64,000 nt of DNA from Escherichia phage vB_EcoM-G3G7. A program made the position numbers and the translations under genes. Below, in pieces: positions 1 through 49,003 of this stretch. The stretch is taken from the sequence record MZ234040.1, one strand, 5' to 3'. The notes beneath the pieces were generated by a model, which saw only the letters and a list, made by a program, of their open reading frames with translations, was not told the origin of the DNA and ran no database searches. The stretch's first letter is position 1. Every line of letters starts with the position of its first letter.

Positions 1-126
1 ATGGACTTTGCTGTTCTTGATCAAGAAAGAAAAGCTGAGTTAGCTCCTCATGTAGAAAAATGTATTACAATGCAACTGCAAGATGCATTCAATAAAAGGT
101 CAAAGAAAAAGTTTAAATTCTTTTAA
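1..126 (+). CDS. Short ORF or C-terminal end of the gene upstream of helicase 41 (position of T4 gene 40); runs from window edge
   Basis: In-frame ORF from position 1 to TAA at 124-126; lysine-rich C-terminus; possibly incomplete at window start. Confidence 0.3.
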   Translation: MDFAVLDQERKAELAPHVEKCITMQLQDAFNKRSKKKFKFF

Positions 127-135
127 GGAGTAAGT

Positions 136-1563
136 GTGGTAGAAATTATTCTTTCCCATCTCATATTTGATCAAGCTTATTTTTCAAAAGTTTGGCCATA
201 TATGGATTCAGAATATTTTGAAAGTGGTCCAGCTAAAAATACATTCAAATTAATTAAATCTCATGTTAATGAGTACCATAGCGTTCCATCTATTAATGCG
301 TTAAATGTTGCATTAGAAAATAGTTCATTTACTGAAACAGAATATTCTGGTGTAAAAACACTTATTTCGAAACTAGCCGATTCTCCAGAAGACCATAGCT
401 GGTTAGTAAAAGAAACAGAAAAATATGTTCAGCAAAGGGCGATGTTTAATGCTACGTCTAAAATAATTGAAATTCAAACTAATGCTGAGCTTCCTCCGGA
501 AAAACGAAATAAGAAAATGCCAGATGTAGGTGCTATTCCTGACATCATGCGCCAAGCATTATCAATTTCATTTGATAGTTACGTTGGTCATGATTGGATG
601 GATGACTACGAAGCACGTTGGCTATCTTATATGAATAAAGCTCGTAAGGTTCCATTTAGACTCAAAATTCTAAATAAAATTACTAAAGGTGGAGCTGAAA
701 CTGGAACACTGAACGTTTTAATGGCTGGTGTTAACGTCGGTAAGTCATTAGGTCTGTGTTCATTGGCAGCAGATTATTTGCAGCTCGGACATAATGTTCT
801 TTACATTTCCATGGAAATGGCAGAAGAAGTCTGTGCTAAGCGTATTGATGCTAATATGCTTGATGTTTCTCTTGATGACATTGATGACGGGCATATTTCT
901 TACGCTGAGTATAAAGGAAAAATGGAAAAATGGCGCGAGAAATCTACTCTCGGTCGTTTAATAGTTAAACAGTATCCTACTGGTGGAGCAGATGCTAATA
1001 CATTTCGTTCGCTTTTAAACGAATTAAAGCTCAAGAAGAATTTTGTTCCAACAATCATTATTGTCGACTATCTGGGTATTTGTAAATCTTGCCGCATTAG
1101 AGTTTACTCAGAAAATAGTTACACAACTGTTAAAGCCATTGCAGAGGAATTACGTGCTCTTGCTGTTGAAACCGAAACTGTTCTTTGGACTGCAGCACAG
1201 GTTGGTAAACAAGCTTGGGATTCTTCTGATGTTAACATGAGCGATATTGCAGAATCTGCCGGTCTTCCAGCAACAGCTGATTTTATGCTTGCGGTCATTG
1301 AAACCGAGGAGCTAGCAGCTGCTGAACAACAACTCATTAAGCAAATCAAATCACGATACGGTGATAAGAATAAATGGAATAAGTTTTTGATGGGTGTTCA
1401 AAAAGGAAATCAGAAATGGGTAGAAATTGAACAAGATTCTACTCCAACTGAAGTGAACGAAGTAGCAGGTTCACAGCAAATTCAGGCTGAACAGAATCGC
1501 TATCAAAGAAACGAATCCGCTCGAGCTCAGTTAGATGCTTTGGCAAATGAATTAAAATTTTAG
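136..1563 (+). CDS. 41: Replicative DNA helicase gp41 (DnaB-like)
   Basis: 475 aa, same length as T4 gp41; P-loop-like GVNVGKS; GTG start 5 nt after AAGGAG. Confidence 0.9.
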   Translation: MVEIILSHLIFDQAYFSKVWPYMDSEYFESGPAKNTFKLIKSHVNEYHSVPSINALNVALENSSFTETEYSGVKTLISKLADSPEDHSWLVKETEKYVQQRAMFNATSKIIEIQTNAELPPEKRNKKMPDVGAIPDIMRQALSISFDSYVGHDWMDDYEARWLSYMNKARKVPFRLKILNKITKGGAETGTLNVLMAGVNVGKSLGLCSLAADYLQLGHNVLYISMEMAEEVCAKRIDANMLDVSLDDIDDGHISYAEYKGKMEKWREKSTLGRLIVKQYPTGGADANTFRSLLNELKLKKNFVPTIIIVDYLGICKSCRIRVYSENSYTTVKAIAEELRALAVETETVLWTAAQVGKQAWDSSDVNMSDIAESAGLPATADFMLAVIETEELAAAEQQLIKQIKSRYGDKNKWNKFLMGVQKGNQKWVEIEQDSTPTEVNEVAGSQQIQAEQNRYQRNESARAQLDALANELKF

Positions 1564-1592
1564 TTTACAAGCTGACAAGACTATGGTATAGT
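1563..1592 (+). promoter_or_regulatory. T4-type early promoter (GTTTAC -35, TATAGT -10) overlapping a 9-bp-stem palindrome
   Basis: GTTTAC 1563-1568, 18-nt spacer, TATAGT 1587-1592; palindrome acaagacta/tagtcttgt 1575-1600. Confidence 0.5.
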
Positions 1593-1621
1593 AGTCTTGT
1601 TGGTTAAATGAGGAGATTGTT

Positions 1622-1804
1622 ATGGAATTGGTAAAGGTAGTTTTTATGGGGTGGTTTAAGAACGAAAGCATGTTTACTAAAGAGATCACAATGATGAAAG
1701 ATGACGTTCAATGGGCTACTACTCAATATGCTGAAGTTAATAAAGCACTAGTTAAAGCTTTCATTGATGACAAGAAGGTATGTGAAGTGGATTGCCGAGG
1801 ATAA
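1622..1804 (+). CDS. dmd: Dmd-like small protein (T4 Dmd is the antitoxin against RnlA/LsoA)
   Basis: 60 aa, GAGGAG RBS, sits immediately downstream of gene 41 as in T4. Confidence 0.6.
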   Translation: MELVKVVFMGWFKNESMFTKEITMMKDDVQWATTQYAEVNKALVKAFIDDKKVCEVDCRG

Positions 1805-1805
1805 T

Positions 1806-2063
1806 ATGCATATCGTTTTATTTAAACCTACTCCGTATAATGTCAGGAAAAATACTCAATTCAAAGCACTTATTGCAGATACGTGGGAATTAGTATTAGA
1901 TATTCCGGCAGAAGAAAGCCCTCCATTTGGTCGAGTGGAATTTATTAAGTTTGCTGTGCGCCCTACAAAGCGACAGATTCGTCAATGCAAAAGATACTTT
2001 CGTAAAATCGCCAAGTTAGAGAAACAGTTTGTAACATGTGATTATGCAGAAGTTTTAAAATAA
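1806..2063 (+). CDS. Hypothetical protein (61.4-like position)
   Basis: ATG at 1806 after GAGGA; the ORF-track start at 1764 overlaps dmd. Confidence 0.45.
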   Translation: MHIVLFKPTPYNVRKNTQFKALIADTWELVLDIPAEESPPFGRVEFIKFAVRPTKRQIRQCKRYFRKIAKLEKQFVTCDYAEVLK

Positions 2064-2065
2064 CT

Positions 2066-2095
2066 GTTTACTTTTATTGGAAATTGAGATACTAT
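2066..2095 (+). promoter_or_regulatory. T4-type early promoter
   Basis: GTTTAC 2066-2071, 18-nt spacer, TACTAT 2090-2095. Confidence 0.55.
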
Positions 2096-2123
2096 ATAAA
2101 CATAAACTACTGAGGAGATTATC

Positions 2124-2417
2124 ATGAAAAAATTTATCTTTGCTGCAATTTTTGCTTTATCTTCTTGCGCTGCTCAGCCTGCTATGGCGGGTTATGACAA
2201 AGATTTGTGCGAATGGTCTATGACTGCAGATCAGACTGAAGTTGAAATTCAAATTGAAGCGGATATTATGAATATCGTTGAACGTGATCGTCCTGAAATG
2301 AAAGCTGAAGTGCAAAAACAACTTAAATCTGGTGGTGTAATGCAGTATAATTATGTTCTGTATTGCGATAAAAACTTTAATAATAAAAATATCATCGCTG
2401 AAGTGGTAGGTGAGTAA
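2124..2417 (+). CDS. sp: Spackle (Sp) periplasmic protein
   Basis: 97 aa; N-terminal signal peptide MKKFIFAAIFALSSCAAQPAMA; size and position match T4 sp. Confidence 0.65.
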   Translation: MKKFIFAAIFALSSCAAQPAMAGYDKDLCEWSMTADQTEVEIQIEADIMNIVERDRPEMKAEVQKQLKSGGVMQYNYVLYCDKNFNNKNIIAEVVGE

Positions 2418-2429
2418 TTAGAGGTTAGT

Positions 2430-2786
2430 ATGTATAGTTCTGAATTTTCATATTTAAAAATGGAAAAAATTTCATACGATTTTATAGATGAAAAGGTTTA
2501 TTACAGTTTCCATGAACCACGTTTTAATAGTGAGGTTGGGTTTATTGTAGTAAAAGACAATTTTATTTTAAAAATATATTCAGCATTAAAGGATTTTCAT
2601 TACGAAAATATTAACCTAAAATTTAATAAAGAAAACGTTCGTAATTGTGCAGTAACAATTACAGGAAATAAAGGCACATGTGTTATGCTATCTGATGAAA
2701 TTAATGATTTGCTAAATGATGCCGAAAAGGTTGCTATTCCATCTATTGATGACCAAATTTTTAATGCTTTTATGAATAGAGGTTAA
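2430..2786 (+). CDS. Hypothetical protein at the 61.2 position (in T4 this locus is, from memory, the anti-DarT factor adfA; unverified)
   Basis: 118-aa ORF with AGAGG RBS; assignment by synteny only. Confidence 0.45.
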   Translation: MYSSEFSYLKMEKISYDFIDEKVYYSFHEPRFNSEVGFIVVKDNFILKIYSALKDFHYENINLKFNKENVRNCAVTITGNKGTCVMLSDEINDLLNDAEKVAIPSIDDQIFNAFMNRG

Positions 2787-2787
2787 T

Positions 2788-2952
2788 ATGAAAACATATA
2801 AAGAATTTATTAAAGAAGATATGGTAGCTGGAGATTCAGGTGGTAATCCTGAAAATATCTCCACTGGAACAACGTCAGGTGCTGTAGTAAATAAAGGTCC
2901 TGAACAGATTCCTAAAAAGAAAAAAGAGGAATCTAAAGAAAAAGAAGAGTAA
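2788..2952 (+). CDS. Small hypothetical protein, 54 aa, Lys/Glu-rich C-terminus (61.1-like position)
   Basis: ATG 2788 after GAGG; ends PKKKKEESKEKEE; below the ORF-track size cut-off. Confidence 0.35.
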   Translation: MKTYKEFIKEDMVAGDSGGNPENISTGTTSGAVVNKGPEQIPKKKKEESKEKEE

Positions 2953-2954
2953 AA

Positions 2955-3983
2955 ATGTCATCAATACCTTGGATTGATAATGAGTTTGCGTATCGTGCAT
3001 TAGCTCATTTACCTAAATTCACACAAGTAAATAATAGTTCAACTTTTAAATTGCGGTTTAGATGCCCTGTTTGTGGAGATTCAAAAACCGACCAGAATAA
3101 AGCTCGTGGATGGTATTATGGTGATAATAATGAAGGAAATATTCATTGTTATAACTGTAACTATCATGCACCAATCGGAATATATCTAAAGGAGTTTGAA
3201 CCTGATTTATATCGTGAGTATATCTTTGAAATAAGAAAAGAAAAAGGTAAAAGTCGTCCAGTAGAAAAACCTAAAGAACTTCCTAAACAACCTGAGAAGA
3301 AAATAATTAAATCTCTTCCGTCATGCGTTAGATTAGATAAACTGGCGGAAGACCATCCAATTATAAAATACGTAAAAGCTCGTTGTATTCCAAAGGATAA
3401 ATGGAAATATCTTTGGTTTACAACTGAATGGCCTAAATTAGTTAATAGCATAGCACCGGGAACATACAAAAAGGAAATTTCTGAGCCTCGTCTTGTTATT
3501 CCAATTTATAATGCTAATGGAAAAGCTGAGTCTTTTCAAGGACGTGCATTAAAGAAAGATGCTCCTCAAAAATATATCACCATTAAAGCTTATCCTGAGG
3601 CAACAAAAATATATGGAGTCGAACGAGTTAAAGATGGCGATGTATATGTTCTAGAAGGACCTATAGATTCACTTTTTATTGAAAATGGTATAGCTATTAC
3701 GGGTGGTCAATTAGACCTAGAAGTTGTTCCATTTAAAGATAGACGAGTGTGGGTTTTAGATAATGAACCTCGTCACCCTGACACTATCAAGCGAATGACT
3801 AAATTAGTTGATGCAGGAGAAAGGGTTATGTTTTGGGATAAATCTCCCTGGAAATCAAAAGATGTTAATGATATGATTAGAAAGGAAGGTGCAACCCCTG
3901 AACAAATTATGGAATATATGAAAAATAATATTGCCCAGGGGTTGATGGCTAAAATGCGGTTATCTAAATATGCCAAGATTTAA
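2955..3983 (+). CDS. 61: DNA primase gp61
   Basis: 342 aa as in T4 gp61; N-terminal zinc-ribbon CPVCGDS...CYNC. Confidence 0.9.
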   Translation: MSSIPWIDNEFAYRALAHLPKFTQVNNSSTFKLRFRCPVCGDSKTDQNKARGWYYGDNNEGNIHCYNCNYHAPIGIYLKEFEPDLYREYIFEIRKEKGKSRPVEKPKELPKQPEKKIIKSLPSCVRLDKLAEDHPIIKYVKARCIPKDKWKYLWFTTEWPKLVNSIAPGTYKKEISEPRLVIPIYNANGKAESFQGRALKKDAPQKYITIKAYPEATKIYGVERVKDGDVYVLEGPIDSLFIENGIAITGGQLDLEVVPFKDRRVWVLDNEPRHPDTIKRMTKLVDAGERVMFWDKSPWKSKDVNDMIRKEGATPEQIMEYMKNNIAQGLMAKMRLSKYAKI

Positions 3984-4180
3984 ATTAACCCAACTAAAGC
4001 AAATGCTAGATCTACGAATGTATCAAGAGTAACTACTGGAATATTAATACCATGTGCAATTGCAATGGGTGATAAAATAAAGTTCCAGAGTAAAATTCCT
4101 ACCATAGCAGAAATAGTAAAAGCTATACGTTTTTTATTACCTTTTATGGCATCAACAAGTGCCATTAATTTTTGTGCCAT
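3980..4180 (-). CDS. Small hydrophobic (membrane) protein, convergent with gene 61
   Basis: 66 aa with two hydrophobic segments; strong SD AAGGAGG 5 nt upstream of ATG on the minus strand. Confidence 0.4.
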   Translation of the reverse strand: MAQKLMALVDAIKGNKKRIAFTISAMVGILLWNFILSPIAIAHGINIPVVTLDTFVDLAFALVGLI

Positions 4181-4224
4181 GTGTCCTCCTTTAAATTAAT
4201 ATTTATCACAAATTTCATAAATTT

Positions 4225-4254
4225 GTTTACTTTCTCAGCTTGTTATGGTATTAT
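4225..4254 (+). promoter_or_regulatory. T4-type early promoter
   Basis: GTTTAC 4225-4230, 18-nt spacer, TATTAT 4249-4254. Confidence 0.55.
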
Positions 4255-4279
4255 AAAATAAATTGCTGAGGATGATATA

Positions 4280-5619
<1,340 letters not shown>

Positions 5620-5679
5620 TTGCTTACATACTCAAATGATATAATTATTTAACTTATTAATGAATTGAAAGGAAAAATA

Positions 5680-6198
5680 ATGGCTTACTTTAACGAATGT
5701 AGTCAACTGATCGAAGGCGCTGATAAAGCTCAAAATGAATATTGGGATATTCTCGGTGATGAAAAAGACCCGCTGCAGGTTATGCTTGATATGCAGAAAT
5801 CTCTACAGGTTCGTTTAGCTAAAGATAAACCTGAATATAACCGTCATCCTGATGATTTGGCTACTGCGGGTGAAGTTGTTGATTGGCTGCGTAATCAGAA
5901 AGATTATATTGATGATGAATTCCGCGAACTATTGACTTCTCTTGGTGGTATGAGCAATGGTGAAAAAGATGCATCTGCTGTATGGAAGCCTTGGAAAGCT
6001 CAACATGGTGAACGACGTGAAACTCTGATTACTGATTTGTCTCCACAAGACCAGTTGGAAATTAAATTCGAAATGATTGATATTCTTCATTTCGTTCTGA
6101 ACATGTTCCAAGGTCTCGGTCTTACGGCTGAAGAAATCTTTAAACTTTATTATCTGAAAAATGCTGAAAATTTCGCTCGTCAAGACCGAGGTTATTAA
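5680..6198 (+). CDS. 56: dCTP pyrophosphatase gp56 (MazG-like)
   Basis: ATG 5680 after AGGAAA; about 172 aa; the ORF-track start at 5665 is a TTG. Confidence 0.8.
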   Translation: MAYFNECSQLIEGADKAQNEYWDILGDEKDPLQVMLDMQKSLQVRLAKDKPEYNRHPDDLATAGEVVDWLRNQKDYIDDEFRELLTSLGGMSNGEKDASAVWKPWKAQHGERRETLITDLSPQDQLEIKFEMIDILHFVLNMFQGLGLTAEEIFKLYYLKNAENFARQDRGY

Positions 6199-6398
6199 TG
6201 GCTCGTTTAAATAAACGTCAACTTAAGAAAGCCCACAAGAAACGTATTGACCAGCTATTTAAAAATTATGACAAGGAGCTCACATACGAGCTCCTATCTA
6301 ATCAGCTCCACAAAGCTTACACAATTAAAACTGGACATATACAATTAGGTAAGGTGCATGAAGAAGCCTTAAAATTAATTATAGAGCATTCAAAATGA
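6198..6398 (+). CDS. Hypothetical basic protein, 66 aa
   Basis: ORF overlapping the gene 56 stop (ATTAATG). Confidence 0.4.
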   Translation: MARLNKRQLKKAHKKRIDQLFKNYDKELTYELLSNQLHKAYTIKTGHIQLGKVHEEALKLIIEHSK

Positions 6399-6582
6399 AA
6401 TTTGATTTTTATGCATGGCAAAAAGCCGGGAGACCGGCTAGTTGAGCATTTGGTTCTGATGGATATAATATTAGAGCTCATTGGAAGTTTAATGCTCCAG
6501 CCGATTATTCTCCGGTAATTATTAACGGTGATGTTGTTATATTAACTAAAATTGGGTATTTTAACGTTCCGCAAGAATTTAT

Positions 6583-6590
6583 TATAAATA
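6583..6590 (+). promoter_or_regulatory. Late promoter TATAAATA upstream of soc
   Basis: Exact TATAAATA about 30 nt upstream of the soc ATG. Confidence 0.5.
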
Positions 6591-6619
6591 GTCATGTAAT
6601 TTAAATAAAGGAGAATTAC

Positions 6620-6865
6620 ATGGCTAGTACTCGCGGTTATGTTAATATTAAAACATTTGAGCAAAAATTAGATGGAAATAAGAAAATTGAAGGAAAGGAA
6701 ATTTCTGTAGCTTTCCCTCTTTATTCTGACGTTCACAAAATTTCTGGCGCTCATTATCAGATATTCCCTTCAGAAAAAGCAGCATATTCTACAGTATATG
6801 AAGAAAATCAACGTACTGAATGGATTACTGCAAACGAAGATTTGTGGAAAGTAACTGGTGAATAA
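6620..6865 (+). CDS. soc: Small outer capsid protein Soc
   Basis: 81 aa; AAGGAG RBS; size and position match T4 Soc. Confidence 0.85.
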   Translation: MASTRGYVNIKTFEQKLDGNKKIEGKEISVAFPLYSDVHKISGAHYQIFPSEKAAYSTVYEENQRTEWITANEDLWKVTGE

Positions 6866-6870
6866 ATTCA

Positions 6871-6896
6871 AGGACTCCTTCGGGAGTCCTTTTTTC
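6871..6896 (+). terminator. Intrinsic terminator (hairpin plus T-run)
   Basis: aggactcc-ttcg-ggagtcct followed by TTTTT; identical to the hairpin at 61638-61663. Confidence 0.7.
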
Positions 6897-6961
6897 ATTT
6901 TACCGGTTTACTTTCCAAAATGAGTATGGTATAATAAAATTATCTTATAGAGGAGAGCACT

Positions 6962-7174
6962 ATGTTAAATCGCTGGATTAAACCAAATGAAGACCTCCAG
7001 AAGGTTCTTGATAAAGCTATCTCTGATAAATGGGGTATGAAAAGCTGGGATTGTGATATCGTCACGCATTCATTCATGATGCATGCAGATGGTTCAGTCG
7101 AGTTCAATGCTGAAATGCGATACACTGATTGGGGTGGATTTCAAAGAGTCGAATTTCAAAGAGGCTTTTTGTAA
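6962..7174 (+). CDS. Hypothetical protein, 70 aa
   Basis: ORF with AGGAGAG upstream. Confidence 0.4.
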   Translation: MLNRWIKPNEDLQKVLDKAISDKWGMKSWDCDIVTHSFMMHADGSVEFNAEMRYTDWGGFQRVEFQRGFL

Positions 7175-17577: not shown

Positions 17578-19395
17578 ATGATTAAGAATGAAATTAAAAT
17601 TCTGAGCGATATTGAACATATCAAAAAGCGTAGCGGCATGTATATTGGCTCTTCTGCTAATGAAATGCATGAGCGCTTTCTGTTTGGTAAATGGGAAAGT
17701 GTTCAGTATGTACCTGGTCTTGTTAAGCTTATTGATGAAATTATCGATAACTCAGTAGATGAAGGTATTCGTACTAAGTTTAAATTCGCAAATAAAATTA
17801 ATGTTACTATTAAAAACAATCAAGTAACAGTTGAAGATAACGGTCGCGGTATTCCACAAGCGATGGTCAAAACACCTACCGGTGAAGAAATTCCTGGTCC
17901 TGTTGCTGCATGGACTATTCCAAAAGCAGGTGGTAACTTCGGTGATGATAAAGAACGCGTCACCGGTGGTATGAATGGTGTTGGTTCTAGTTTGACAAAC
18001 ATTTTTTCTGTGATGTTTGTCGGTGAAACTGGTGATGGTCAAAATAATATTGTAGTTCGTTGTTCAAATGGCATGGAAAATAAATCATGGGAAACTATTC
18101 CAGGAAAATGGAAAGGAACTCGCGTTACTTTCATTCCTGATTTTATGTCATTTGAAACTAATGAGCTGTCCCAAGTTTATCTTGACATTACACTAGATCG
18201 TCTCCAGACACTTGCAGTAGTTTATCCTGATATTCAATTTACCTTTAATGGTAAAAAGGTTCAGGGCAATTTTAAGAAATATGCACGCCAATATGATGAG
18301 CATGCTATCGTTCAAGAACAAGAAAATTGCTCTATTGCGGTTGGTCGTTCACCGGATGGTTTTCGTCAATTAACTTATGTGAATAACATTCACACTAAGA
18401 ATGGTGGCCATCACATTGACTGTGTTATGGATGATATTTGTGAAGACCTTATTCCACAAATCAAACGTAAGTTCAAAATTGATGTGACTAAAGCACGCGT
18501 TAAAGAATGTTTGACTATCGTTATGTTTGTCCGTGATATGAAAAACATGCGATTTGATTCTCAAACTAAAGAGCGTTTGACTTCTCCATTTGGTGAAATC
18601 CGTAGTCATATTCAACTTGATGCTAAAAAGATTTCACGTGCTATTCTAAATAATGAAGCAATTCTAATGCCGATTATTGAAGCTGCTTTGGCTCGTAAAT
18701 TAGCGGCAGAAAAAGCAGCAGAAACTAAAGCAGCTAAAAAGGCTTCTAAAGCTAAGGTTCATAAACATATTAAAGCGAATCTTTGTGGTAAAGATGCTGA
18801 TACTACTCTTTTCTTGACTGAGGGTGATTCGGCTATCGGATATCTTATTGATGTTCGTGATAAAGAACTTCACGGTGGTTATCCATTACGTGGTAAAGTT
18901 CTCAACAGTTGGGGTATGTCATATGCTGACATGCTTAAAAACAAAGAACTGTTTGATATTTGCGCAATCACTGGATTAGTTCTTGGTGAAAAAGCTGAAA
19001 ACTTGAATTATCATAATATTGCTATTATGACCGATGCTGACCATGATGGTCTAGGAAGCATTTATCCTTCTCTGCTCGGGTTTTTTAGTAATTGGCCAGA
19101 ATTGTTTGAGCAAGGACGAATTCGCTTTGTCAAAACTCCTGTAATCATCGCTCAGGTCGGTAAAAAACAAGAATGGTTTTATACAGTCGCTGAATATGAG
19201 AGTGCCAAAGATGCTCTACCTAAACATAGCATCCGTTATATTAAAGGACTTGGCTCTTTGGAAAAATCTGAATATCGTGAGATGATTCAAAACCCAGTAT
19301 ATGATGTTGTTAAACTTCCTGAGAACTGGAAAGAGCTTTTTGAAATGCTCATGGGAGATAATGCTGACCTTCGTAAAGAATGGATGAGCCAGTAG
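17578..19395 (+). CDS. 39: DNA topoisomerase II large subunit gp39 (GyrB-like ATPase), unsplit form covering T4 genes 39 plus 60
   Basis: 605 aa from ATG 17578; GHKL ATPase motifs; C-terminal TOPRIM-like region present in one ORF. Confidence 0.9.
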   Translation: MIKNEIKILSDIEHIKKRSGMYIGSSANEMHERFLFGKWESVQYVPGLVKLIDEIIDNSVDEGIRTKFKFANKINVTIKNNQVTVEDNGRGIPQAMVKTPTGEEIPGPVAAWTIPKAGGNFGDDKERVTGGMNGVGSSLTNIFSVMFVGETGDGQNNIVVRCSNGMENKSWETIPGKWKGTRVTFIPDFMSFETNELSQVYLDITLDRLQTLAVVYPDIQFTFNGKKVQGNFKKYARQYDEHAIVQEQENCSIAVGRSPDGFRQLTYVNNIHTKNGGHHIDCVMDDICEDLIPQIKRKFKIDVTKARVKECLTIVMFVRDMKNMRFDSQTKERLTSPFGEIRSHIQLDAKKISRAILNNEAILMPIIEAALARKLAAEKAAETKAAKKASKAKVHKHIKANLCGKDADTTLFLTEGDSAIGYLIDVRDKELHGGYPLRGKVLNSWGMSYADMLKNKELFDICAITGLVLGEKAENLNYHNIAIMTDADHDGLGSIYPSLLGFFSNWPELFEQGRIRFVKTPVIIAQVGKKQEWFYTVAEYESAKDALPKHSIRYIKGLGSLEKSEYREMIQNPVYDVVKLPENWKELFEMLMGDNADLRKEWMSQ

Positions 19396-31378: not shown

Positions 31379-32176
31379 TTATACTCTTGGACCATATATT
31401 ACTCCAACATTTTGCCAAGTTGGAGCAGATCCTATGACAGCATAACCTGCTGCTCCTCCTGCACCAACCTTTAGAACTTTACCACCATCAGACCAGGCAT
31501 TTTGTCCATTTCCTCCGGCATCGCCGCCCTGGCCAGAGTGAGCATTTCCGTATTGGTAACCACCTCCTGGGGCGACGTATGAAGCTGCGCCACCTGAGTA
31601 ACCACCGCCACCACCTGGGCCAAATGGTCTTCCGCCGCCACCACCAATATCTTGCCAGTCTGCCCCTGAGTGAACACGGTAAGCAATGCCGCCACCACCG
31701 CCTCCGCCACCACAGATTACTCCACCATTGTTAATTCTTAATCGTCCACCAATGTCGTTTTGAATACAATGCCCGCCTTGTTGTCCATTACCATCTCCAC
31801 CGGAATGAGTCCATCCACCTTGTCCACCTCTACCCCACATATGAGCGCCAATAATATTTAACTGAACATATTCATTTGGTGTATCTCCGTACATGAAGAA
31901 TAAAGGAACATCTTTAGAATATGATACTAAATCACCTGTAATATTAAACACTATAGGTGCATTACCTGCCTCAAAACATCTATCTCGGAACCATTGACCA
32001 TTGAAGTTATGGTCTGCTCCAAGCGTGTGAATAATTTCTCGTGAGCGACCTGCAAATTGACTCATCCAGCAAGGAACACCCAATCTTAATTGACCAGCCG
32101 CTTGACTCATCCAGCGCTGTCCTGTTTCATTTGCGGCTGAACTTCCAATCCAACCAGGAACACCAACTACTGCCAT
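31379..32176 (-). CDS. 38: Tail-fibre tip adhesin gp38, T2-type with glycine-rich motifs
   Basis: 265 aa; poly-Gly islands ([20 protein letters not shown]) separating variable segments; directly downstream of gene 37. Confidence 0.8.
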
Positions 32177-32207: not shown

Positions 32208-34464
32208 TGTTGTTAGAATTTAAAATATTTACTAATTTTGCGAGCAATTTTAGTAAAGAAAGGAGTTTTCAATTCTTTAATTTCTTCACTCATTTCCTGA
32301 ATAGCCTTAATTAAAAGAGCATTCACAGCAGAGTTAGAAATTGTCAGAACATCAGATCCATCAACTTCAACTTTAGATACAGCTTCCGGTAATTCCTTTT
32401 CAAGGTCCTGAGCAATAATACCAACTTCACGTTTAATAACACTACGGTCTTTAATAGACTTAACTTTATCGTAAATATAAACTTTCAGTCGACATACTTT
32501 TTCAAGTGCTCCGTTTTCTAGCTCTTTTTTATTAATCTTAAGACGACCATCGGAACGAATATACACATCGTTAAAGTTACCATTACCAGGAGAATAGAAA
32601 GTACCGTCGTAATGAAATTCAAATACCGCGTTAGGGTGTCCAGCCGCTGGTGATGCCTCCGCAGATCCAACACGAATAATTGCTTGCCCCCAATTGTTAG
32701 GGACACGACGAATACCAAGATCGACGGCAGTTACAAACCCTTGATTGGTGATTACACTTCTTCCTTTGAGAATCGGATAATAACAATCCTGTGAAACATA
32801 ACCATGATCGACGAATATTGGTGCTTCTACTCGCCATTGGTTGCCCCAATCACCCGGTTGTCTAGCAATCCATCCAGAACCGTTAATGTGTACACGATCG
32901 CGGTTAACGTTAACCATTGCGATATTTTGTGGATTTAGCGAAATCTCACCATTGTTTGTGATATGTACTGCCGCCTGAGTAGCATAGCTATAAAATGCTA
33001 GCGAATTATCAGCACCACCCTTACCAATATACCAGTTACCACTCCCGTCTACGTCACCACGAATATGCAAAGCATTACCAGCAGTTGTTGATAATACAAT
33101 AGAATCACCCGGACGTTTAATAATCAATCTACCTTCGGATTCAATTTCACCAAAAAATTTAGTCTTAATTGCACCAGTCGCTAAAGTACGTTCAGTGGAA
33201 AAATGAACGCCTTTGCTGTCTTCTAACTGAATAATGTTATCGCGCGCATTATTACTATCACCCCAATGATTAAACCGGAAATAATCACGTGATTGCTTAC
33301 CACCCGCTTCAAACGTCAGCGTACCTTTACTTAAATTAACATCACCGCTAAAGGTAGCAGCAAGAGAATCACGTTCTAATTTTAAAACGTTAGCACCACT
33401 AGTACCACCTAAAGTAACATCACCAGTTCTCAATTCATAACGGAAAGGTCTATTTGTATTATAGTTTCCATTTTGATCATCTTCGTTGGTGGAAAGAATA
33501 TAAAGATTCTCTCCATAAGTACGGAAAATTGTACCAAAATTTCCGGCATACATACGGAATGCATTAGATGAGCGAAATTTAACTTCTGTTTTAAAAGTGG
33601 TAGTGTTATTAAGGTTAACAGTAGAGTTAAAATTGGTAGGAGCACCGAAGTTAACTGCGCCATTAAAATCTTGTTGAGCTGTCCATGTGTGGCGACCATC
33701 TTCAAGAACAACACGGCGGACTGTGCAAGTTCTATTTCCAGAATTACCGAACACACGAACGACAAAATAACGGTAGTTTGTCTGGGATACAGTACCGCGC
33801 CAAACCTGAACAGTACGCCCTGTGCTAGTGTGTTCGCTAGGACCAACGGAAAACATAACCAGGTTTCCGTCAATCGTCCCCCAATCCATATTTGCTGGCA
33901 TATTCTTTATTTTGTTCAAAGGAACACTAAACATACTACCAGGGACAAAATCAAAGGTTTGCCAATCTAGCTCCGCTAATTGAGTTTTAATACCACCCAT
34001 ACCCAAAGTAATTGGCAAAGAGTAAGATGTATATACTTCGTTCCATGTACCCCACGCGCCACCGGTATATGCACGCTCAAAAATACGATCGCGAGTAGTT
34101 GCACCCGTTCCGGCAGTAGTAAATTTTTGGAAAATAGCACCGCCAGAAGCACGCTGTTTAACTTCCAGCAAACCAACAATAACAGTCGGCAAACCTTCAC
34201 CGGTAGGACAGTTAATAACGGCATCAGTGCCTAAAATATTATATAACCCAGGAGTTTTAAAATCATTCAGATCTCCATCATAGAAAGTCGCTGGTGTGAC
34301 ATTACCGACTTGTTGCCACGGTCCCCATTTAGGCGCGGAAGCATCCCACGCGGCAGCAAGACAACGAGTATATACAACACCAAATCTGGTTGTATATCTT
34401 TGTGTACGAGAATAGTTTCCACCTTCATATACTTCCAAAAGACCTTGAGCTGACGACCCCTTTT

Positions 34465-34591
34465 CTGGGAAATTTCTGTCAAAGGTAGCAATGGAATTTG
34501 AACTATTTCGCCACAAACCAAAGTGTTCAGCGCCTCCTAGATCATTAAGATCAATTGTTGTTGACAGTGGACGAGTACCGGATTGAATATT
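34465..34591. repeat. Tandem direct repeat, unit 1 (127 bp)
   Basis: Exact copy of 34592-34718. Confidence 0.9.
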
Positions 34592-34718
34592 CTGGGAAAT
34601 TTCTGTCAAAGGTAGCAATGGAATTTGAACTATTTCGCCACAAACCAAAGTGTTCAGCGCCTCCTAGATCATTAAGATCAATTGTTGTTGACAGTGGACG
34701 AGTACCGGATTGAATATT
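34592..34718. repeat. Tandem direct repeat, unit 2 (127 bp)
   Basis: Exact copy of 34465-34591; boundaries share TTC microhomology with flanks. Confidence 0.9.
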
Positions 34719-35335
34719 TCGCCACACACTCCACGGACCATTTACTCCGTTCCATGTAGCAGTCAAGGAACGAATATAAACATTTCCGTATCTAGTTGTA
34801 TATCTCTGAGTACCAGCAAATTGACCGGCCACAAATACTTCTAGCACACCTACAGCATTTTCTTCTGGAAATTTATTTGCTGGTTGAGCGTTGGTTGAAG
34901 TTGCTTTCGACCAAACTCCAAGATATTCTTCAACAGGCCCATACGTATCTAAATTAGCATCAGTAGGTAATTCGCCATTATTTTTTATAAATGTTGTGCT
35001 ATTGACATTTATGTCAGATGGAGTTAGCGTGATATCTTTTGACCCATCAAAGGATATACCATTAATTTTTCGTGCTGTTTTTAATTTCGTTGCAGTTGCA
35101 GCGTTACCTGTTAAATTTCCAATTATATTTCCATTAACAGTTAAAGAACCATCAATTGTTCCTCCATATTTTAAACCTAATTCTATAACACTACCTGAGT
35201 CATCTTTTGTGAAAATTGTTTTATCTTTTAAGTTTATAGCCAATTCACCTTCGGCTAATACTGAAGCTGCAGGACGTTGACCTGCAATTTTGCTTCTTTT
35301 AAATTGTATTTGTTTTAAAGTAGCCATAAGTCCTC

Positions 35336-35986
35336 TTAATAATAGCCGAAATCTTGAACAGAATCTTTAATTACGATTTGGTCAAATCGTGGAACGTGTG
35401 AAGGTTGAGATGCAGGATTCTGTGAAAAAAGGTTTGGCGCAGTTAAATTTCCTGTCATAGTGTCTCCAGAGCGTAATACCCTAGAGTTTGCATTTGCTGT
35501 AACAGTATTTATTGCTCCATCAACATAATCTTTGCGAGTAACATCAGATGCTGCGGAAGGAGTAGATGTAACAGTTACCGATGGAGCCGTTACAGCCCTG
35601 GTAAATGTTGTCAAACCTTCTGGCGTAATAGTAATTTGTCCAGTAGTGATTTCACTACCTGCTGGTCTAAAACTAATACCGCCAGAAGAGCCACCAACTA
35701 CAAGAGTATTACCAGTGCCGCCACCAGAACGAATTCGGATAGGGGTTTCATTATTACTTAATTGAAGATAACTATTTACCCCGTAATTAATAGTAATTGG
35801 ACCGGCGTAAGTACCACCATTAGCTTTAGAAACGAAATCGTTATCAGCTGCCTGCGGTTTATTATATTCTGAATATATTTTAAATGATTTGTAGAGTACA
35901 TCGTCACCGGCTGAATTCAATGGAAAATTTCCTTGATGCCAAATGACAGATCCACCCACAGTTGAACCTACTTTTAAATCAGCCAT
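35336..35986 (-). CDS. 36: Long tail fibre distal connector gp36
   Basis: 216 aa; position between genes 35 and 37. Confidence 0.8.
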
Positions 35987-36048: not shown

Positions 36049-37164
36049 TTAAACTTCTCTAAATTCCTGTCCAAACACTTTGCCAGTTTTAGAAGAGGCT
36101 TGTGTAGGAAGTACCATTATATCTGGAGGTGAAGCCGATTCACAGACATAATTAACGCGAATACCGTTGACGCCAAATTCGGCAGGTTTTGAAATGCCGC
36201 CATTTCTTGATACTTCAGAAAAACTTAAATTTCTCATGCCGCCTTGACCTGCTTGAGCAGTTCTTTGTGCATATATCGTAAATCCTACGGCGTTTTCTGG
36301 AACAACTACATAGTCTTCTTTTAATTCCCAAGACCCAGCTTGCCCAGTAAACTCAGCTTGGGTCGAGGAAATATATCCATTTGATGCATCATAAAAACGA
36401 ATGGATATGTTTGTAGTTCCAAGATCAAGTAAATCAGCATCAGCATATAACTGTGCTTTAAGATAAAGAACATCACCAGGAATTAAATTATAGTCAGAAA
36501 GTTTACTTATAGCAGCTGAAGTTGGCAATCGCGCAATTTCGTTATTAGTTCCACCAACTGCTGACATGAATTGCTCGACACTTTCATAAGTTCTTTTTGG
36601 AAATCCTGTCGCTCCGACGTCTTCTAAACTATCAAATACAACATCTAAAATAGTTTGATAATCATCTGTGCTTTTTCTATTACTTAGTTTAACATGCTCT
36701 AATGCAATAGCTCTTTTAGAAGAAGTATAAAAAGCAGCATATGATACGTCAAATCTTGACAATACTGAATCTGATGGAAAAACTGAAGTTCCTGCTCCCC
36801 TTAACCAAGATACCACTTCAGGAGGAAAATTAACCTTTCCGCTAGTTAATATAGCAACAAGTCTATTGTTTGACAAAGAATTCATGAAACTAACAAAAGC
36901 AGCTGATGTAGTATTATTTGAAGTAGAAAAAGCATATGACTTACTATCAACTAATGCTCCTGTAGAAGGGTCAAAAACTCTTAAATGAAGACCTGCACTA
37001 AATGTTTGATTTCCAACGGGATTATCCTGAAATTTAACATATGGCCCCGCAGTAGAAAGCGGGCAAGAACCCGCTATGCTTATTTTATATCTTACTGAAT
37101 TGCTTTCCGATAAAAATGGCGTTTGGACATATCCTTGTCCAAACTCTGCCATAAATTTTTCCAT
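36049..37164 (-). CDS. 35: Long tail fibre proximal connector (hinge) gp35
   Basis: 371 aa; directly downstream of gene 34. Confidence 0.8.
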   Translation of the reverse strand: MEKFMAEFGQGYVQTPFLSESNSVRYKISIAGSCPLSTAGPYVKFQDNPVGNQTFSAGLHLRVFDPSTGALVDSKSYAFSTSNNTTSAAFVSFMNSLSNNRLVAILTSGKVNFPPEVVSWLRGAGTSVFPSDSVLSRFDVSYAAFYTSSKRAIALEHVKLSNRKSTDDYQTILDVVFDSLEDVGATGFPKRTYESVEQFMSAVGGTNNEIARLPTSAAISKLSDYNLIPGDVLYLKAQLYADADLLDLGTTNISIRFYDASNGYISSTQAEFTGQAGSWELKEDYVVVPENAVGFTIYAQRTAQAGQGGMRNLSFSEVSRNGGISKPAEFGVNGIRVNYVCESASPPDIMVLPTQASSKTGKVFGQEFREV

Positions 37165-37172
37165 AATACCTC

Positions 37173-40100
37173 TTATTCAATCCACTCAAATTTAACAGTT
37201 TTATTCACTGGGTCAGGAATAATGCGAACATTACCAATTCGCAAGAAATCGCGAATAGTAAGATTACCTATTATTCCATTATCAGATGGGATCGCTCCTA
37301 TATCTGAAGGTTGAGGAGGGTTACCTCCGTCAAATACCTGAACAAAACTTGACCAAGAGTTTTTGGTTTTCTGCCATGTACGTGTCCAGCGAGTGGTACG
37401 TGCTTCTGGGGTCGTTGGATAAGTAATCCAATCTTGGTAAAGTGAATCAAGTGTGTTACCAAACTGAGTCAATGTACCAGGAGATTTAACTTCTTCACCA
37501 CGTTCTAAGTATGGAAGTCCAGTCACTTCATTAGTTTTTTCAACCATTTTAAAATAACCCGGGAACTGGTTATAAGTGGCTGAATCATTAATATCGATTG
37601 ACCAGAATCCTACTGTATCAGATGTTGGCGCACGGGTATATAAATCAGAGGTTTTAGTACCCTGAGAACGAATTCTCGAGTTAACAGTCAAACCACCCGA
37701 ACTTATAGTAGCACCTTTTGCAATGATTAAGCTTTCACCAATCGTTACTTGGCCAGATGCATTATTAATAGCTAAAGGACGCAATCCATTAAATCCGCCA
37801 GTTTGATCACCCGATGCAGTAAGCATAAAATTCGTTACTGACCCATCATTGCGAACAATGAAACCATAATTTCCGTTAATAGCACGGAAAGCATTTGCGC
37901 TTCGAGAAATAATTTCACCAGTTGCAGTGACTGAATTACCAAATGTTGCTACACCATTTGCATTCAATGTTCCTGAAGCATTAACATTTATCGGTGTTAC
38001 TGTACCGTTGATATTAAATGTTATATTTCCAGCTTTATTACGCTGAGAATAAAAATGACTAGACGTTTCATCACTAACTTCAAATACGGTAGAACGTGTT
38101 GTGTCTGATTCCCCACTAAATTGATTTCCCCACACTCTGACTGTCATCGTTTGAGCCGGGTTTGTTCCAGTTTGAGGTCCTTTCTCAAAAATCAGACGAG
38201 TTGCCGTTCCAGTATTAGAAATAGTTAATGTACTATTTGCTGAAACTGATCCACCGAATGTAGCAGTACTAGATGATACAAGAGGGGCACTCAGATTCGT
38301 TTGTTGGGTTAAGGTTAGTGAACCATTAACTGTTTGTGCAATGTCCCTACGAATGAACTGGAGCGAATCTAGACCATCTAATAAATTACTATCTACAGCT
38401 TTTGCTTTTAATGGCAAATAATTTGCTAATACGCGATTTAATTCATATGGTGATACTGCATAACCATTTTTCTCATATGATTCTAATGGCTGTGTTGAAC
38501 CTACCGTATCATTACCAACAAACGTTAATGAACCAGAAGAAGTTTTAACAAACCCTCTTATCAGAGTAGTTGCTGCCCAAGTTGGTTCACTCTGCACAAT
38601 CCATTTTAAATTTTTTGGAGATACAGCAGTATTTGCTGACGTTCCAGTCACAGTTTCAGACTGAGTTGCAACTTTAATAACACCTTCTTGCGATTCGGTA
38701 GATTTAGTACCTAAAAGCTTTTTAGGAGTTATTAAAACATTATCTAATGTTCCTGCAGCAGCTTCAACTTGTGTAGCTACACGAAGTGTACCACGCTGTG
38801 TCTCATTTGCTTCAAGAATATTAAGGGTATAATGGTCCCAGAGAGTTCCTGATTCAACTAATCCAGATAGAGCAACAACAGAAGTACGATCAGTACTATT
38901 AAATCTGGTTTTAATTTTTAATGGTGTAGAGATACGAGTATCGTCGACGCCTGCGTCGAATTCAACTTGCGTAGCAATTTCAGCTATACCACTTAAACTT
39001 TCAGTTGCTCTACGGTCATTTAAAGTTTTAGGAGTGACTGCACGAGTATAGTCAGTTCCTGTATTAACTTCACTTTGCGTAGCAATTTCAATTAAACCAA
39101 TTCTTCCATCAGTTGATGTCTTTTTATGTAACGTTTCTGGCGTTACAACCGCATTTGCCCATCCTTCTTGGCTTTGTCCAGCAATTACTTCACTTTCAAC
39201 TGCTAAAATTACTGCGCCTTGTTGCGTTGGAGTAGCTTTATACTGATCCAAAGCTTTAGGTGAAACAACTAAATTATTAGTGTTTTTATTATAAACATTC
39301 GTACCATTTAATTCACGACTAGAAGCTGGAGTAGCTCCTGCGGTAGATACAAAAGTTACAATACCCGATAATGTTTCAGAACCTTGACGAGCTTGAAGCT
39401 TTTTAGGAGTGATGATTGTAGTATCATCAGTACCTGTATTAGTTTCCTGCTGCGTAGCAATTTCAGCGACACCTCTGCGAGTTTCTGTAGCAGTTCTTTC
39501 ATTCAGCTTTTTAGGAGTGATGATAAGGTCATCTGCAAAAGAGAATGTGGTGTTCTGATTCACTTGAGCAGTAGTTGCTATTCTTGCAATACCTCTGCGA
39601 GTTTCTGTAGCAGTACGATTAGCTAACGTTTCTGGAGTAATTGCCAATTCTTTTTGCGGAGAATTTTCTAAATCAGCATTTGCTTGAGCTTGTGTAGCTA
39701 AAGCAATTACGCCTAATCTTGCTCTAGTAGAATTATTTAAAGAATCGACTCTTTCAACTGTTGGAACGTTTTGCTGTACAACCCAGTATTTTCCATCAGA
39801 ATCTTCTATATAAGCAAGTTGCAAAACTGGTACATAATTAGTTTCACCGTTAAAAACTAATTCTTGAACTGTTACCCATTCAGCTTCAGGCGGATATTCT
39901 GAACGTTTTGGGAATTGCAGCAATTGAACTGAAGAAGCAATTTTATCTTCACCAGCAGCTTTGATTTTAACTGTTTGTCCTTTTCTCATGTAATTCATGG
40001 AAATTTTAACAGTATCACCAACAGAAATATCAGTCGGAAGCTGAAGTTCAATTGTTTGGGTTGTTCCATTATTCGCGCCAAATACCATGACTTCTTCATT

Positions 40101-41042
40101 TGGACGAATATTTGAATTAGTTGTTATAATGCGTAAACGTGCTTTACTATCCCCGTCAAACAATCTCCACAATTTCTCATTATCGTCAAACATCAAGAAA
40201 CCGTCAATCGATGTACGGCCTTCAATGGAATGAGTTCCAACTTCTTGTACTGAAGTCGTTTCATCGTATGTAGTAACAATTGTATGATAAAGTGGATTCA
40301 GTTTATCTAAATCAACGAAATTAATAATATCGCCATGATTAGCAAATCTCGGAAGTTTAACATTAATTGGTGCAGCAGAAGTAAATCTACGTACGATAAA
40401 ATCATTAGATTGTGCTTGATATGCAGTCGATGGAGTAACAATCGCAGCTTCTCTGCTATAATCAGCAATATACATTTGCCACAAACGATTATTAAAAATG
40501 AATACCATCTGTGACTTTGGATGAGTCATTAAAACTGAACGTACCTGTTCACCTCTAAAATTGACAATACTCTGATTTGAAGAATTTATTTTAACCTGAT
40601 TTATGCCAGGTTTTCCACCGATATCTTGAATTATTACGGTTTCTCCATCAAGCGGAGAAGGTGGTAAAGTAAACTCAATGTCATTGCCAACTGATGTATC
40701 TACTGAAATTGCTTCTCCGGATTTTAATTGATATGGTCCAGATGATACGGTTGTATATACGGCATCAGTACGTAATGCTTTCCAACGAATTCTATTAAAA
40801 TTTCCAGCAGGTTTTGGAATATTATCCGTTGCTGCCCAAAAACGATTATTATAAATGATTACAAAATCTTTTAAATATCCACGAGTTGGGTCATATTGCT
40901 GAACTGTGTTTTCTTGAATTAAGTAATCAACGTTAACACCGTCAGTTCCTACGGTACGGTCAGCTAAAGCTACGTTGATTATTTTATCGCCACCTGCGTC
41001 CAGACCATCTTCTGCTCTGAACTTTCTTTTAATCTCGGCCAT
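37173..41042 (-). CDS. 34: Long tail fibre proximal subunit gp34
   Basis: 1289 aa as T4 gp34; internal repeats of the TPKKL...ETRRG...IAT type. Confidence 0.9.
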   Translation of the reverse strand: MAEIKRKFRAEDGLDAGGDKIINVALADRTVGTDGVNVDYLIQENTVQQYDPTRGYLKDFVIIYNNRFWAATDNIPKPAGNFNRIRWKALRTDAVYTTVSSGPYQLKSGEAISVDTSVGNDIEFTLPPSPLDGETVIIQDIGGKPGINQVKINSSNQSIVNFRGEQVRSVLMTHPKSQMVFIFNNRLWQMYIADYSREAAIVTPSTAYQAQSNDFIVRRFTSAAPINVKLPRFANHGDIINFVDLDKLNPLYHTIVTTYDETTSVQEVGTHSIEGRTSIDGFLMFDDNEKLWRLFDGDSKARLRIITTNSNIRPNEEVMVFGANNGTTQTIELQLPTDISVGDTVKISMNYMRKGQTVKIKAAGEDKIASSVQLLQFPKRSEYPPEAEWVTVQELVFNGETNYVPVLQLAYIEDSDGKYWVVQQNVPTVERVDSLNNSTRARLGVIALATQAQANADLENSPQKELAITPETLANRTATETRRGIARIATTAQVNQNTTFSFADDLIITPKKLNERTATETRRGVAEIATQQETNTGTDDTTIITPKKLQARQGSETLSGIVTFVSTAGATPASSRELNGTNVYNKNTNNLVVSPKALDQYKATPTQQGAVILAVESEVIAGQSQEGWANAVVTPETLHKKTSTDGRIGLIEIATQSEVNTGTDYTRAVTPKTLNDRRATESLSGIAEIATQVEFDAGVDDTRISTPLKIKTRFNSTDRTSVVALSGLVESGTLWDHYTLNILEANETQRGTLRVATQVEAAAGTLDNVLITPKKLLGTKSTESQEGVIKVATQSETVTGTSANTAVSPKNLKWIVQSEPTWAATTLIRGFVKTSSGSLTFVGNDTVGSTQPLESYEKNGYAVSPYELNRVLANYLPLKAKAVDSNLLDGLDSLQFIRRDIAQTVNGSLTLTQQTNLSAPLVSSSTATFGGSVSANSTLTISNTGTATRLIFEKGPQTGTNPAQTMTVRVWGNQFSGESDTTRSTVFEVSDETSSHFYSQRNKAGNITFNINGTVTPINVNASGTLNANGVATFGNSVTATGEIISRSANAFRAINGNYGFIVRNDGSVTNFMLTASGDQTGGFNGLRPLAINNASGQVTIGESLIIAKGATISSGGLTVNSRIRSQGTKTSDLYTRAPTSDTVGFWSIDINDSATYNQFPGYFKMVEKTNEVTGLPYLERGEEVKSPGTLTQFGNTLDSLYQDWITYPTTPEARTTRWTRTWQKTKNSWSSFVQVFDGGNPPQPSDIGAIPSDNGIIGNLTIRDFLRIGNVRIIPDPVNKTVKFEWIE

Positions 41043-47126: not shown

Positions 47127-47127
<1 letters not shown>

Positions 47128-47675
47128 TGAAACAATACCAATTTTTAATTAAAGATATCCTGGAAAATGGCTACGAAACCGATGACCGAACAGGCACAGG
47201 AACAATTGCTTTGTTCGGTACTAAATTACGCTGGGATTTAACTAAAGGTTTTCCTGCGGTAACAACTAAGAAGCTCGCCTGGAAAGCTTGCATTGCTGAG
47301 CTACTTTGGTTTTTATCAGGAAGCACAAATGTCAATGATTTACGATTAATTCAGCATGATTCGTTAATCCAAGGCAAAACAGTTTGGGATGAAAATTACG
47401 AAAATCAGGCAAAAGATTTAGGATACCATAGTGGTGAACTTGGCCCAATTTATGGAAAACAGTGGCGCGATTTTGGCGGTGTAGACCAAATTATAGAAGT
47501 TATTGATCGTATTAAAAAACTACCAAGTGATAGGCGTCAAATTGTTTCTGCGTGGAATCCAGCTGAACTCAAGCAGATGGCATTACCGCCTTGTCATATG
47601 TTCTATCAGTTTAATGTGCGTAATGGCTATTTGGATTTGCAGTGGTATCAACGATCAGTAGATGTTTTCTTGGGT
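47127..47675 (+). CDS. td: Thymidylate synthase, exon 1
   Basis: ATG 47127 (MKQYQ...); exon ends ...VDVFLG at the 5' splice site after U 47675; active-site PPCH present. Confidence 0.9.
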
Positions 47676-48691
47676 TAATTGAGGCCTGAGTATAAGGTGA
47701 CTTATACTTGTAATCTATCTAAACGGGGAACCTCTCTAGTAGACAATCCCGTGCTAAATTGTAGGACTGCCCTTTAATAAATACTTCTATATTTAAAGAG
47801 GTATTTATGAAAAGCGGAATTTATCAGATTAAAAATACTTTAAACAATAAAGTATATGTAGGAAGTGCTAAAGATTTTGAAAAGAGATGGAAGAGGCATT
47901 TTAAAGATTTAGAAAAAGGATGCCATTCTTCTATAAAGCTTCAGAGGTCTTTTAACAAACATGGTAATGTGTTTGAATGTTCTATTTTGGAAGAAATTCC
48001 ATATGAGAAAGATTTGATTATTGAACGAGAAAATTTTTGGATTAAAGAGCTTAATTCTAAAATTAATGGATACAATATTGCTGATGCAACGTTTGGTGAT
48101 ACATGTTCTACGCATCCATTAAAAGAAGAAATTATTAAGAAACGTTCTGAAACTGTTAAAGCTAAGATGCTTAAACTTGGACCTGATGGTCGGAAAGCTC
48201 TTTACAGTAAACCCGGAAGTAAAAACGGGCGTTTGAATCCAGAAACCCATAAGTTTTGTAAGTGCGGTGTTCGCATACAAACTTCTGCTTATACTTGTAG
48301 TAAATGCAGAAATCGTTCAGGTGAAAATAATTCATTCTTTAATCATAAGCATTCAGACATAACTAAATCTAAAATATCAGAAAAGATGAAAGGTAAAAAG
48401 CCTAGTAATATTAAAAAGATTTCATGTGATGGGGTTATTTTTGATTGTGCAGCAGATGCAGCTAGACATTTTAAAATTTCGTCTGGATTAGTTACTTATC
48501 GTGTAAAATCTGATAAATGGAATTGGTTCTACATAAATGCCTAACGACTATCCCTTTGGGGAGTAGGGTCAAGTGACTCGAAACGATAGACAACTTGCTT
48601 TAACAAGTTGGAGATATAGTCTGATCTGCATGGTGACATGCAGCTGGATATAATTCCGGGGTAAGATTAACGACCTTATCTGAACATAATG
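47676..48691 (+). mobile_element. Group I self-splicing intron of td carrying the I-TevI homing endonuclease ORF
   Basis: 1016 bp; begins TAATTGAGGCCTGAGTATAAGGTG and ends ...AACATAATG; exon junction restores ...FLG/LPFNIA... Confidence 0.9.
47807..48544 (+). CDS. I-TevI: Intron-encoded GIY-YIG homing endonuclease I-TevI
   Basis: 245 aa; GIYQI...VYVGS motif; C-terminal zinc finger CKCG...CSKC. Confidence 0.9.
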   Translation: MKSGIYQIKNTLNNKVYVGSAKDFEKRWKRHFKDLEKGCHSSIKLQRSFNKHGNVFECSILEEIPYEKDLIIERENFWIKELNSKINGYNIADATFGDTCSTHPLKEEIIKKRSETVKAKMLKLGPDGRKALYSKPGSKNGRLNPETHKFCKCGVRIQTSAYTCSKCRNRSGENNSFFNHKHSDITKSKISEKMKGKKPSNIKKISCDGVIFDCAADAARHFKISSGLVTYRVKSDKWNWFYINA

Positions 48692-49003
48692 CTTCCATTT
48701 AATATTGCATCATATGCTACGTTAGTTCATATTGTAGCTAAGATGTGTAATCTTATTCCGGGAGATTTGATATTTTCCGGTGGTAATACTCATATCTATA
48801 TGAATCACGTAGAACAATGTAAAGAAATTTTGCGTCGTGAACCTAAAGAGCTTTGTGAACTGGTAATAGGCGGATTGCCTTATAAATTCCGCTATCTTTC
48901 TACTAAAGAACAATTGGAATACATTCTTAAACTCAGGCCTAAAGATTTCGTTCTCAAAGATTATCAGTCCCACGGCGTCTTGAAAGGAAAAATGGCGGTG
49001 TAA
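48692..49003 (+). CDS. td: Thymidylate synthase, exon 2
   Basis: Starts LPFNIASYATL...; the two exons together give 286 aa as T4 Td. Confidence 0.9.
   Translation, partial: LPFNIASYATLVHIVAKMCNLIPGDLIFSGGNTHIYMNHVEQCKEILRREPKELCELVIGGLPYKFRYLSTKEQLEYILKLRPKDFVLKDYQSHGVLKGKMAV

Follow-up and report, generated by a model that had tools for sequence, protein, structure and literature searches.

An exact 127-bp tandem duplication that splits gene 37 in the record of Escherichia phage vB_EcoM-G3G7 is very probably an untrimmed assembly overlap

The GenBank record of Escherichia phage vB_EcoM-G3G7 (MZ234040) contains an exact 127-bp tandem duplication within gene 37, which encodes the distal subunit of the long tail fibre. 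Because 127 is 3 x 42 + 1, the gene seems to be frameshifted. We conclude, with little doubt, that the duplication is an artefact of assembly and curation, i.e. a SPAdes overlap of k = 127 that was left untrimmed and became internal when the record was re-opened. The real phage would then carry one copy of the unit and an intact 995-aa gp37. The window analysed here, meaning the whole stretch of DNA under study, is 64,000 nt long and corresponds to bases 32001-96000 of MZ234040; positions below are window positions unless a record is named.

The array at 34463-34718 is the sole tandem array that Tandem Repeats Finder reports in the 64-kb window, with a period of 127, 2.0 copies, 100% matches and no indels. 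The stretch of period-127 identity is 256 nt long, or 2 x 127 + 2, so that the 127-bp unit can be drawn in three registers, and the boundary bases that are shared are TT. In the leftmost register, the two copies are as follows.

34463..34589, no strand assigned, 127-bp unit copy 1, exact repeat
34590..34716, no strand assigned, 127-bp unit copy 2, exact repeat

The two bases that follow, 34717-34718 (TT), lengthen the identity between the copies by chance. The earlier note had drawn the units at 34465-34591 and 34592-34718 and called them identical head-to-tail copies, and direct comparison bears this out. It had also described a TTC microhomology between the unit boundaries and the flanks as consistent with slippage, which does not hold: only TT is shared, and this is not evidence of slippage. 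An exact repeat of 127 nt is far beyond chance. The window holds no third copy of the unit, the next best match in its 64 kb being 21 nt long.

A much shorter direct repeat is also present in this region. The 12-nt sequence TATTTCGCCACA occurs at 34504, 34631 and 34715 and encodes both WRN motifs of gp37; in a one-copy gene 37 it would be found twice, with a spacing of 84 nt. It is a plausible substrate for in-frame slippage of 28 codons, and no such event was seen.

The duplication lies amongst the distal fibre genes, which are those usual for T-even phages (gp38, gp37, gp36, gp35 and gp34). The features of this region are listed below.

31379..32176, minus strand, gene 38, T2-type tail-fibre adhesin (Pfam GP38 and Gp38_N)
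32213..34648, minus strand, gene 37 C-terminal fragment ORF, 811 aa, TTG start (QZI83258.1, 'tail fiber protein')
34551..35327, minus strand, gene 37 N-terminal fragment ORF, 258 aa (QZI83259.1, 'tail fiber')
32213..35327, minus strand, true gene 37, long tail fibre distal subunit, 995 aa after removal of one copy
35336..35986, minus strand, gene 36, hinge connector, directly upstream of gene 37
36049..37164, minus strand, gp35
37173..41042, gp34

The ORF translations agree with the earlier note that gene 37 is split into a 258-aa ORF and an 811-aa ORF, and that a 43-residue block (NIQSGTRPL...DRNFPE) is common to both. Each fragment is identical, residue for residue, to the corresponding protein of the G3G7 record. 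The unit encodes residues ~205-247 of the 995 in gp37, and a premature stop is reached 13 codons past the junction. As a consequence of how the frames are joined, the last 12 residues of the 258-aa ORF are out-of-frame read-through into the second copy, while the first 19 residues of the 811-aa ORF are out-of-frame sequence of the upstream copy. Deleting one unit had been predicted to give a single ORF of about 995 aa, and it gives one of exactly 995 aa. A Peptidase_S74 intramolecular chaperone domain occupies aa 883-941, in the C-terminal part of the restored protein, whose ORF is as long as that of gene 37 in the siblings, where the CDS is intact (2988 nt).

Two further observations concern the proteins of this region. 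Residues ~160-400 of the restored gp37 contain three diverged copies of a motif of ~45 residues (…LEVF/Y…TQRYTTR.G.VY.R…W…W…), which looks like the trace of an old in-frame repetition within the fibre shaft that is unrelated to the 127-bp repeat. The gp35 homologue (36049-37164, minus strand) matches the Pfam family ILEI (Interleukin-like EMT inducer, PF15711) over residues 58-112, at 33.7 bits against a cutoff of 27, a family name that is unexpected for a phage fibre hinge protein.

Independent sequences of near-identical genomes lack the extra copy. The G3G7 genome is listed at 168,649 bp (MZ234040; PMC8614997, Table 1), which is the length of its sibling G3G6 (MZ234039, 168,522 bp) plus exactly 127. 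The window is co-linear with the siblings and aligns to bases 32001-95873 of G3G6; with one copy removed, the two differ at 2 of 63,873 bases. When a 1401-nt query across the array was compared with phage records, 693 of them matched, and the best 40 all span 1274 nt, i.e. a single copy. The junction between the copies (34589/34590) gave no match when a 50-nt probe was run against 50,697 phage records. This probe has 25 nt on either side of the junction, so half-matches cannot seed megablast. Scans for the junction in metagenome and genome contigs also returned no match; these negatives weigh little, because just one relative that has this allele is present in the metagenome collection, and it has a single copy. 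The junction is absent from IMG/VR as well, a result that carries no weight since the normal (wild-type) boundary is likewise missing there.

The window also contains a thymidylate synthase gene (~47127-49003, plus strand, G3G6_149 to G3G6_152) whose annotation consists of two pieces separated by a homing endonuclease. The td group I intron of T4, with I-TevI, has this same layout. Even so, no Rfam family reached its gathering threshold when the window was scanned.

The length of the unit points to the assembler. For reads of at least 250 nt, the default k set of SPAdes is 21, 33, 55, 77, 99 and 127, of which 127 is the largest. A SPAdes contig of a circular or circularly permuted genome has the final k-mer at both of its ends. 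The phages of the study that includes G3G7 were sequenced as MiSeq v3 600-cycle (2x300) reads and assembled with SPAdes 3.13.0/3.14.1 (PMC8614997). End overlaps of 127 bp in SPAdes assemblies are documented (PMC5923482, PMC8104045), and in one of these cases the 127-bp terminal repeats were trimmed off before the genome was "re-opened" (PMC8104045). Likewise, a 55-bp overlapping end was trimmed from a T4-like phage ahead of re-opening (PMC8483715). According to these papers, the overlap measures 127 bp when reads are long and 55 bp when they are short. The first base of the sibling records is the ATG of CDS 001, which means that this series of records was re-opened once assembly was complete.

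Every defining feature of a SPAdes end overlap that could be tested is found in G3G7, namely exactness, a length equal to k, the assembler, re-opening of the record and absence elsewhere. The read length and the circularly permuted T4-like genome are also the same. The one departure is one of position: such an overlap usually sits at the two ends of a deposited sequence or has been trimmed, whereas that of G3G7 is internal and mimics a frameshift in an essential gene. There are also points against this reading. Reads of 300 nt could in principle assemble a true 254-nt duplication, and the exact curation steps are not described in PMC8614997.

A second record of the same GenBank series contains a duplication of the same kind. 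The record of CHD2BS1 (MZ234027) is 168,577 bp long, or G3G6 plus 55, and over its bases 1-31,555 it matches G3G6 with 100.000% identity once an exact 55-bp tandem duplication at ~18015-18125 is set aside. The two cases share the record layout, an exact repeat, a length that is a SPAdes k, and absence of the extra copy from G3G6. They differ in that the CHD2BS1 duplication lies outside the fibre genes, at the stop of gp47 and the start of the next ORF, and has no adjoining SNP relative to G3G6. Because 55 is a SPAdes default k, the CHD2BS1 duplication is very likely the same untrimmed-overlap artefact. Neither chance nor biology readily explains why two sibling records should have duplications that are both of SPAdes k lengths (55 and 127).

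An unrelated feature of these records is that bases 1-7023 of both MZ234027 and MZ234039 contain ten consecutive CDS of varied sizes that are all named "thioredoxin". This looks like annotation carry-over and not biology.

How the overlap came to be internal can be reconstructed, although the order of the curation steps and the heterogeneity of reads invoked below are things that we infer. SPAdes, ending at k = 127 on MiSeq 2x300 reads, would have assembled the circularly permuted T4-like genome into one contig with the same 127-mer at both ends. The ends would then have been joined and the sequence opened at the CDS 001 start codon, to bring it into line with the siblings, with the overlap copy left in. 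An overlap that is untrimmed when the ends are joined gives ...X-K-K-Y..., which is exactly the structure seen. Copy 1 (34463..34589) would be the 127-mer from the 3' end of the original SPAdes contig, copy 2 (34590..34716) the same 127-mer from its 5' end, and 34589/34590 a false junction.

The differences between G3G7 and G3G6 suggest where the contig was opened. Across the 63,873 bases compared with one copy removed, there are only two, at 34462 and 31672. Position 34462 is the base directly before the 127-mer 34463-34589; it is T in G3G7 and C in G3G6 and G3F8, so that codon 247 of gp37 reads AAG (K) in place of GAG (E), i.e. E247K. None of the 69 phage records that matched a 70-bp query centred on this SNP has the T. 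The chance that one of two SNPs would fall at one of the 4-6 positions of the kind described below, in 63,873 bases, is estimated at ~1-2 x 10^-4. Heterogeneous reads at 34462 are the probable reason why the contig was opened at this place. In a k = 127 graph, a variable site s makes the k-mer s+1..s+127 a branch vertex, which here would be 34463-34589. A circular path opened at that vertex would start and end with the 127-mer and would have the chosen allele just before the terminal copy. Such heterogeneity could have arisen in the G3G7 stock, or sibling libraries that are nearly identical could have carried over into the reads. Yet a break does not need a polymorphic site, as the 55-bp duplication of CHD2BS1 has no adjacent SNP.

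The other difference, at 31672, is N169H in gp38. Both changes are therefore nonsynonymous and located in receptor-binding fibre proteins (gp37 and gp38), and G3G7 may be a host-range variant of the G3F/G3G isolates.

We weighed the untrimmed overlap against readings in which the duplication is real. It could be present out of frame in some or most genomes of the lysate, being maintained by co-infection or reverting, such that it acts as an on/off switch for the fibre; we consider this very unlikely. T4 with a defective gene 37 makes fibreless, non-infectious particles. G3G7 was purified through plaques, and it plaqued on 49% of the test panel, the highest plaquing host range among the ancestors, and was used in breeding (PMC8614997), so it must make gp37. 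This purification, applied to the phages of that study, ran through at least four consecutive single-plaque isolations (PMC8614997), and under repeated single-plaque passage a genome that depends on complementation cannot persist as the majority. The remaining evidence against a real duplication is that its length equals the largest k of the assembler, that a sibling has the same kind of exact duplication at k = 55 outside any fibre gene, that siblings and progeny phages have one copy (among the matches listed), and that a real event would not account for a SNP at the outer boundary. Slippage at a microhomology was rejected as its origin: TT alone is shared at the boundaries, and slippage at the 12-nt direct repeat TATTTCGCCACA close by would be expected to give an in-frame event of 84 bp, not one of 127 bp. 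Nor does the array have the form of a slipped-strand phase-variation switch, as its unit is 127 nt long and is present in two copies here and in one in every relative examined. The earlier note had left the choice among an assembly artefact, a defective variant in the population and an unstable on/off duplication. The value of k and the 55-bp sister case strongly favour the first of these, and the plaque purification and infectivity of the phage speak against the other two.

What favours a real duplication, apart from the length of the reads, comes from other T-even phages. The gene 37 duplications of T4 described by Tetart and colleagues are reportedly in frame and in the C-terminal adhesin region, and are said to leave functional fibres with a wider host range. 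Both these and the G3G7 case are tandem duplications inside a T-even gene 37. That of G3G7, in contrast, is not in frame and not in the C-terminal receptor-recognition region: it affects residues ~205-247 and would abolish the fibre. The adhesin of G3G7 is a separate protein, gp38. T-even phages are known to form tandem duplications, gene 37 included (Tetart, Repoila, Monod, Krisch 1996, J Mol Biol 258:726, cited in PMC8614997).

A closer parallel is Escherichia phage UPWr_E2 (PP418986.1), a relative whose isolate name and host strain are different and which PMC8614997 does not mention. It is reported to be infectious (PMC12427302), and its record has an exact 349-bp tandem duplication of two copies in gene 37 (record positions 64387-65085). 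As 349 is 3 x 116 + 1, this duplication is also out of frame. Its gene is split into WWT36933.1 (699 aa) and WWT36955.1 (406 aa), and removal of one copy restores 995 aa, just as in G3G7. The two cases differ in that 349 is not a SPAdes k, whereas 127 is, and in that the 349-bp unit is bracketed by a 9-bp inverted repeat (ATAATACAA / TTGTATTAT), a match found in 0.015% of random flank pairs. UPWr_E2 came to light solely because its fragment clustered with the fragment from the window, which implies a strong ascertainment bias. It is mainly because of this duplication that we leave a slight residual probability to a biological reading. The specific proposal that the duplication is present in part of the G3G7 population, and that out-of-frame duplications recur in gene 37 (127 and 349 bp) as a reversible fibre on/off state, is more improbable still than a real duplication in general. 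If it were true, gene 37 duplications would switch off the long tail fibre until recombination between the two copies restored the gene.

Two other explanations were considered. The duplication could be real and fixed if the phage still made a working fibre, either because ribosomes undergo a programmed +1 frameshift after the junction and before the premature stop or because the two fragments co-assemble. The phage is indeed infectious though its record shows a split gene, and an AGGAGG sits upstream of the TTG start of the 811-aa ORF. This AGGAGG, however, is 11 nt from the TTG and is simply coding sequence for LGGAE, and there is no in-frame ATG in the first 300 codons of the 811-aa frame. 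Only 13 codons are available for the +1 shift, and the single XXXYYYZ heptamer that they contain is not in frame. Frameshift rescue was rejected on these grounds, there being neither a usable slippery site nor a homopolymer run of 5 or longer. The N-terminal part of T4 gp37 joins gp36, and the C-terminal fragment would be without this part. The split arrangement is used by no relative among the best 40 matches, and its junction is found in none of the 50,697 phage records. Overall, we regard a fixed duplication as the least credible of the readings, to the point of being negligible. A misassembly driven by repeats, or a chimeric library artefact, either of them independent of an overlap between contig ends, is very improbable too, if not to that extreme, and somewhat more so than the recurrent on/off state. 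The diverged internal repeats of gp37 and the fact that Nextera/PCR libraries can hold chimeras are consistent with such an origin. However, a chimera would not yield a length of exactly k, and the 55-bp sister case points to an end overlap. Repeat-driven misassembly was itself rejected, as the 127-nt unit has no similar DNA copy in the window besides its twin (the next being the 21-nt match).

Altogether, the untrimmed SPAdes overlap matters for data quality rather than for phage biology. As deposited, MZ234040 overstates the genome by 127 bp and shows an essential host-range gene as two fragments, and QZI83258.1 and QZI83259.1 are already in protein databases and clusters. The record would thereby mislead comparison of receptor-binding proteins, prediction of host range and counts of pseudogenes, and it belongs to a phage that is an ancestor in a phage-therapy breeding study. 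A second instance, that of 55 bp in MZ234027, is found in the same GenBank series, and both records need correction. As a rule, when a re-opened phage or plasmid record has an exact two-copy tandem repeat with a period of 21, 33, 55, 77, 99 or 127, the repeat is best presumed to be an untrimmed SPAdes overlap pending inspection of the reads.
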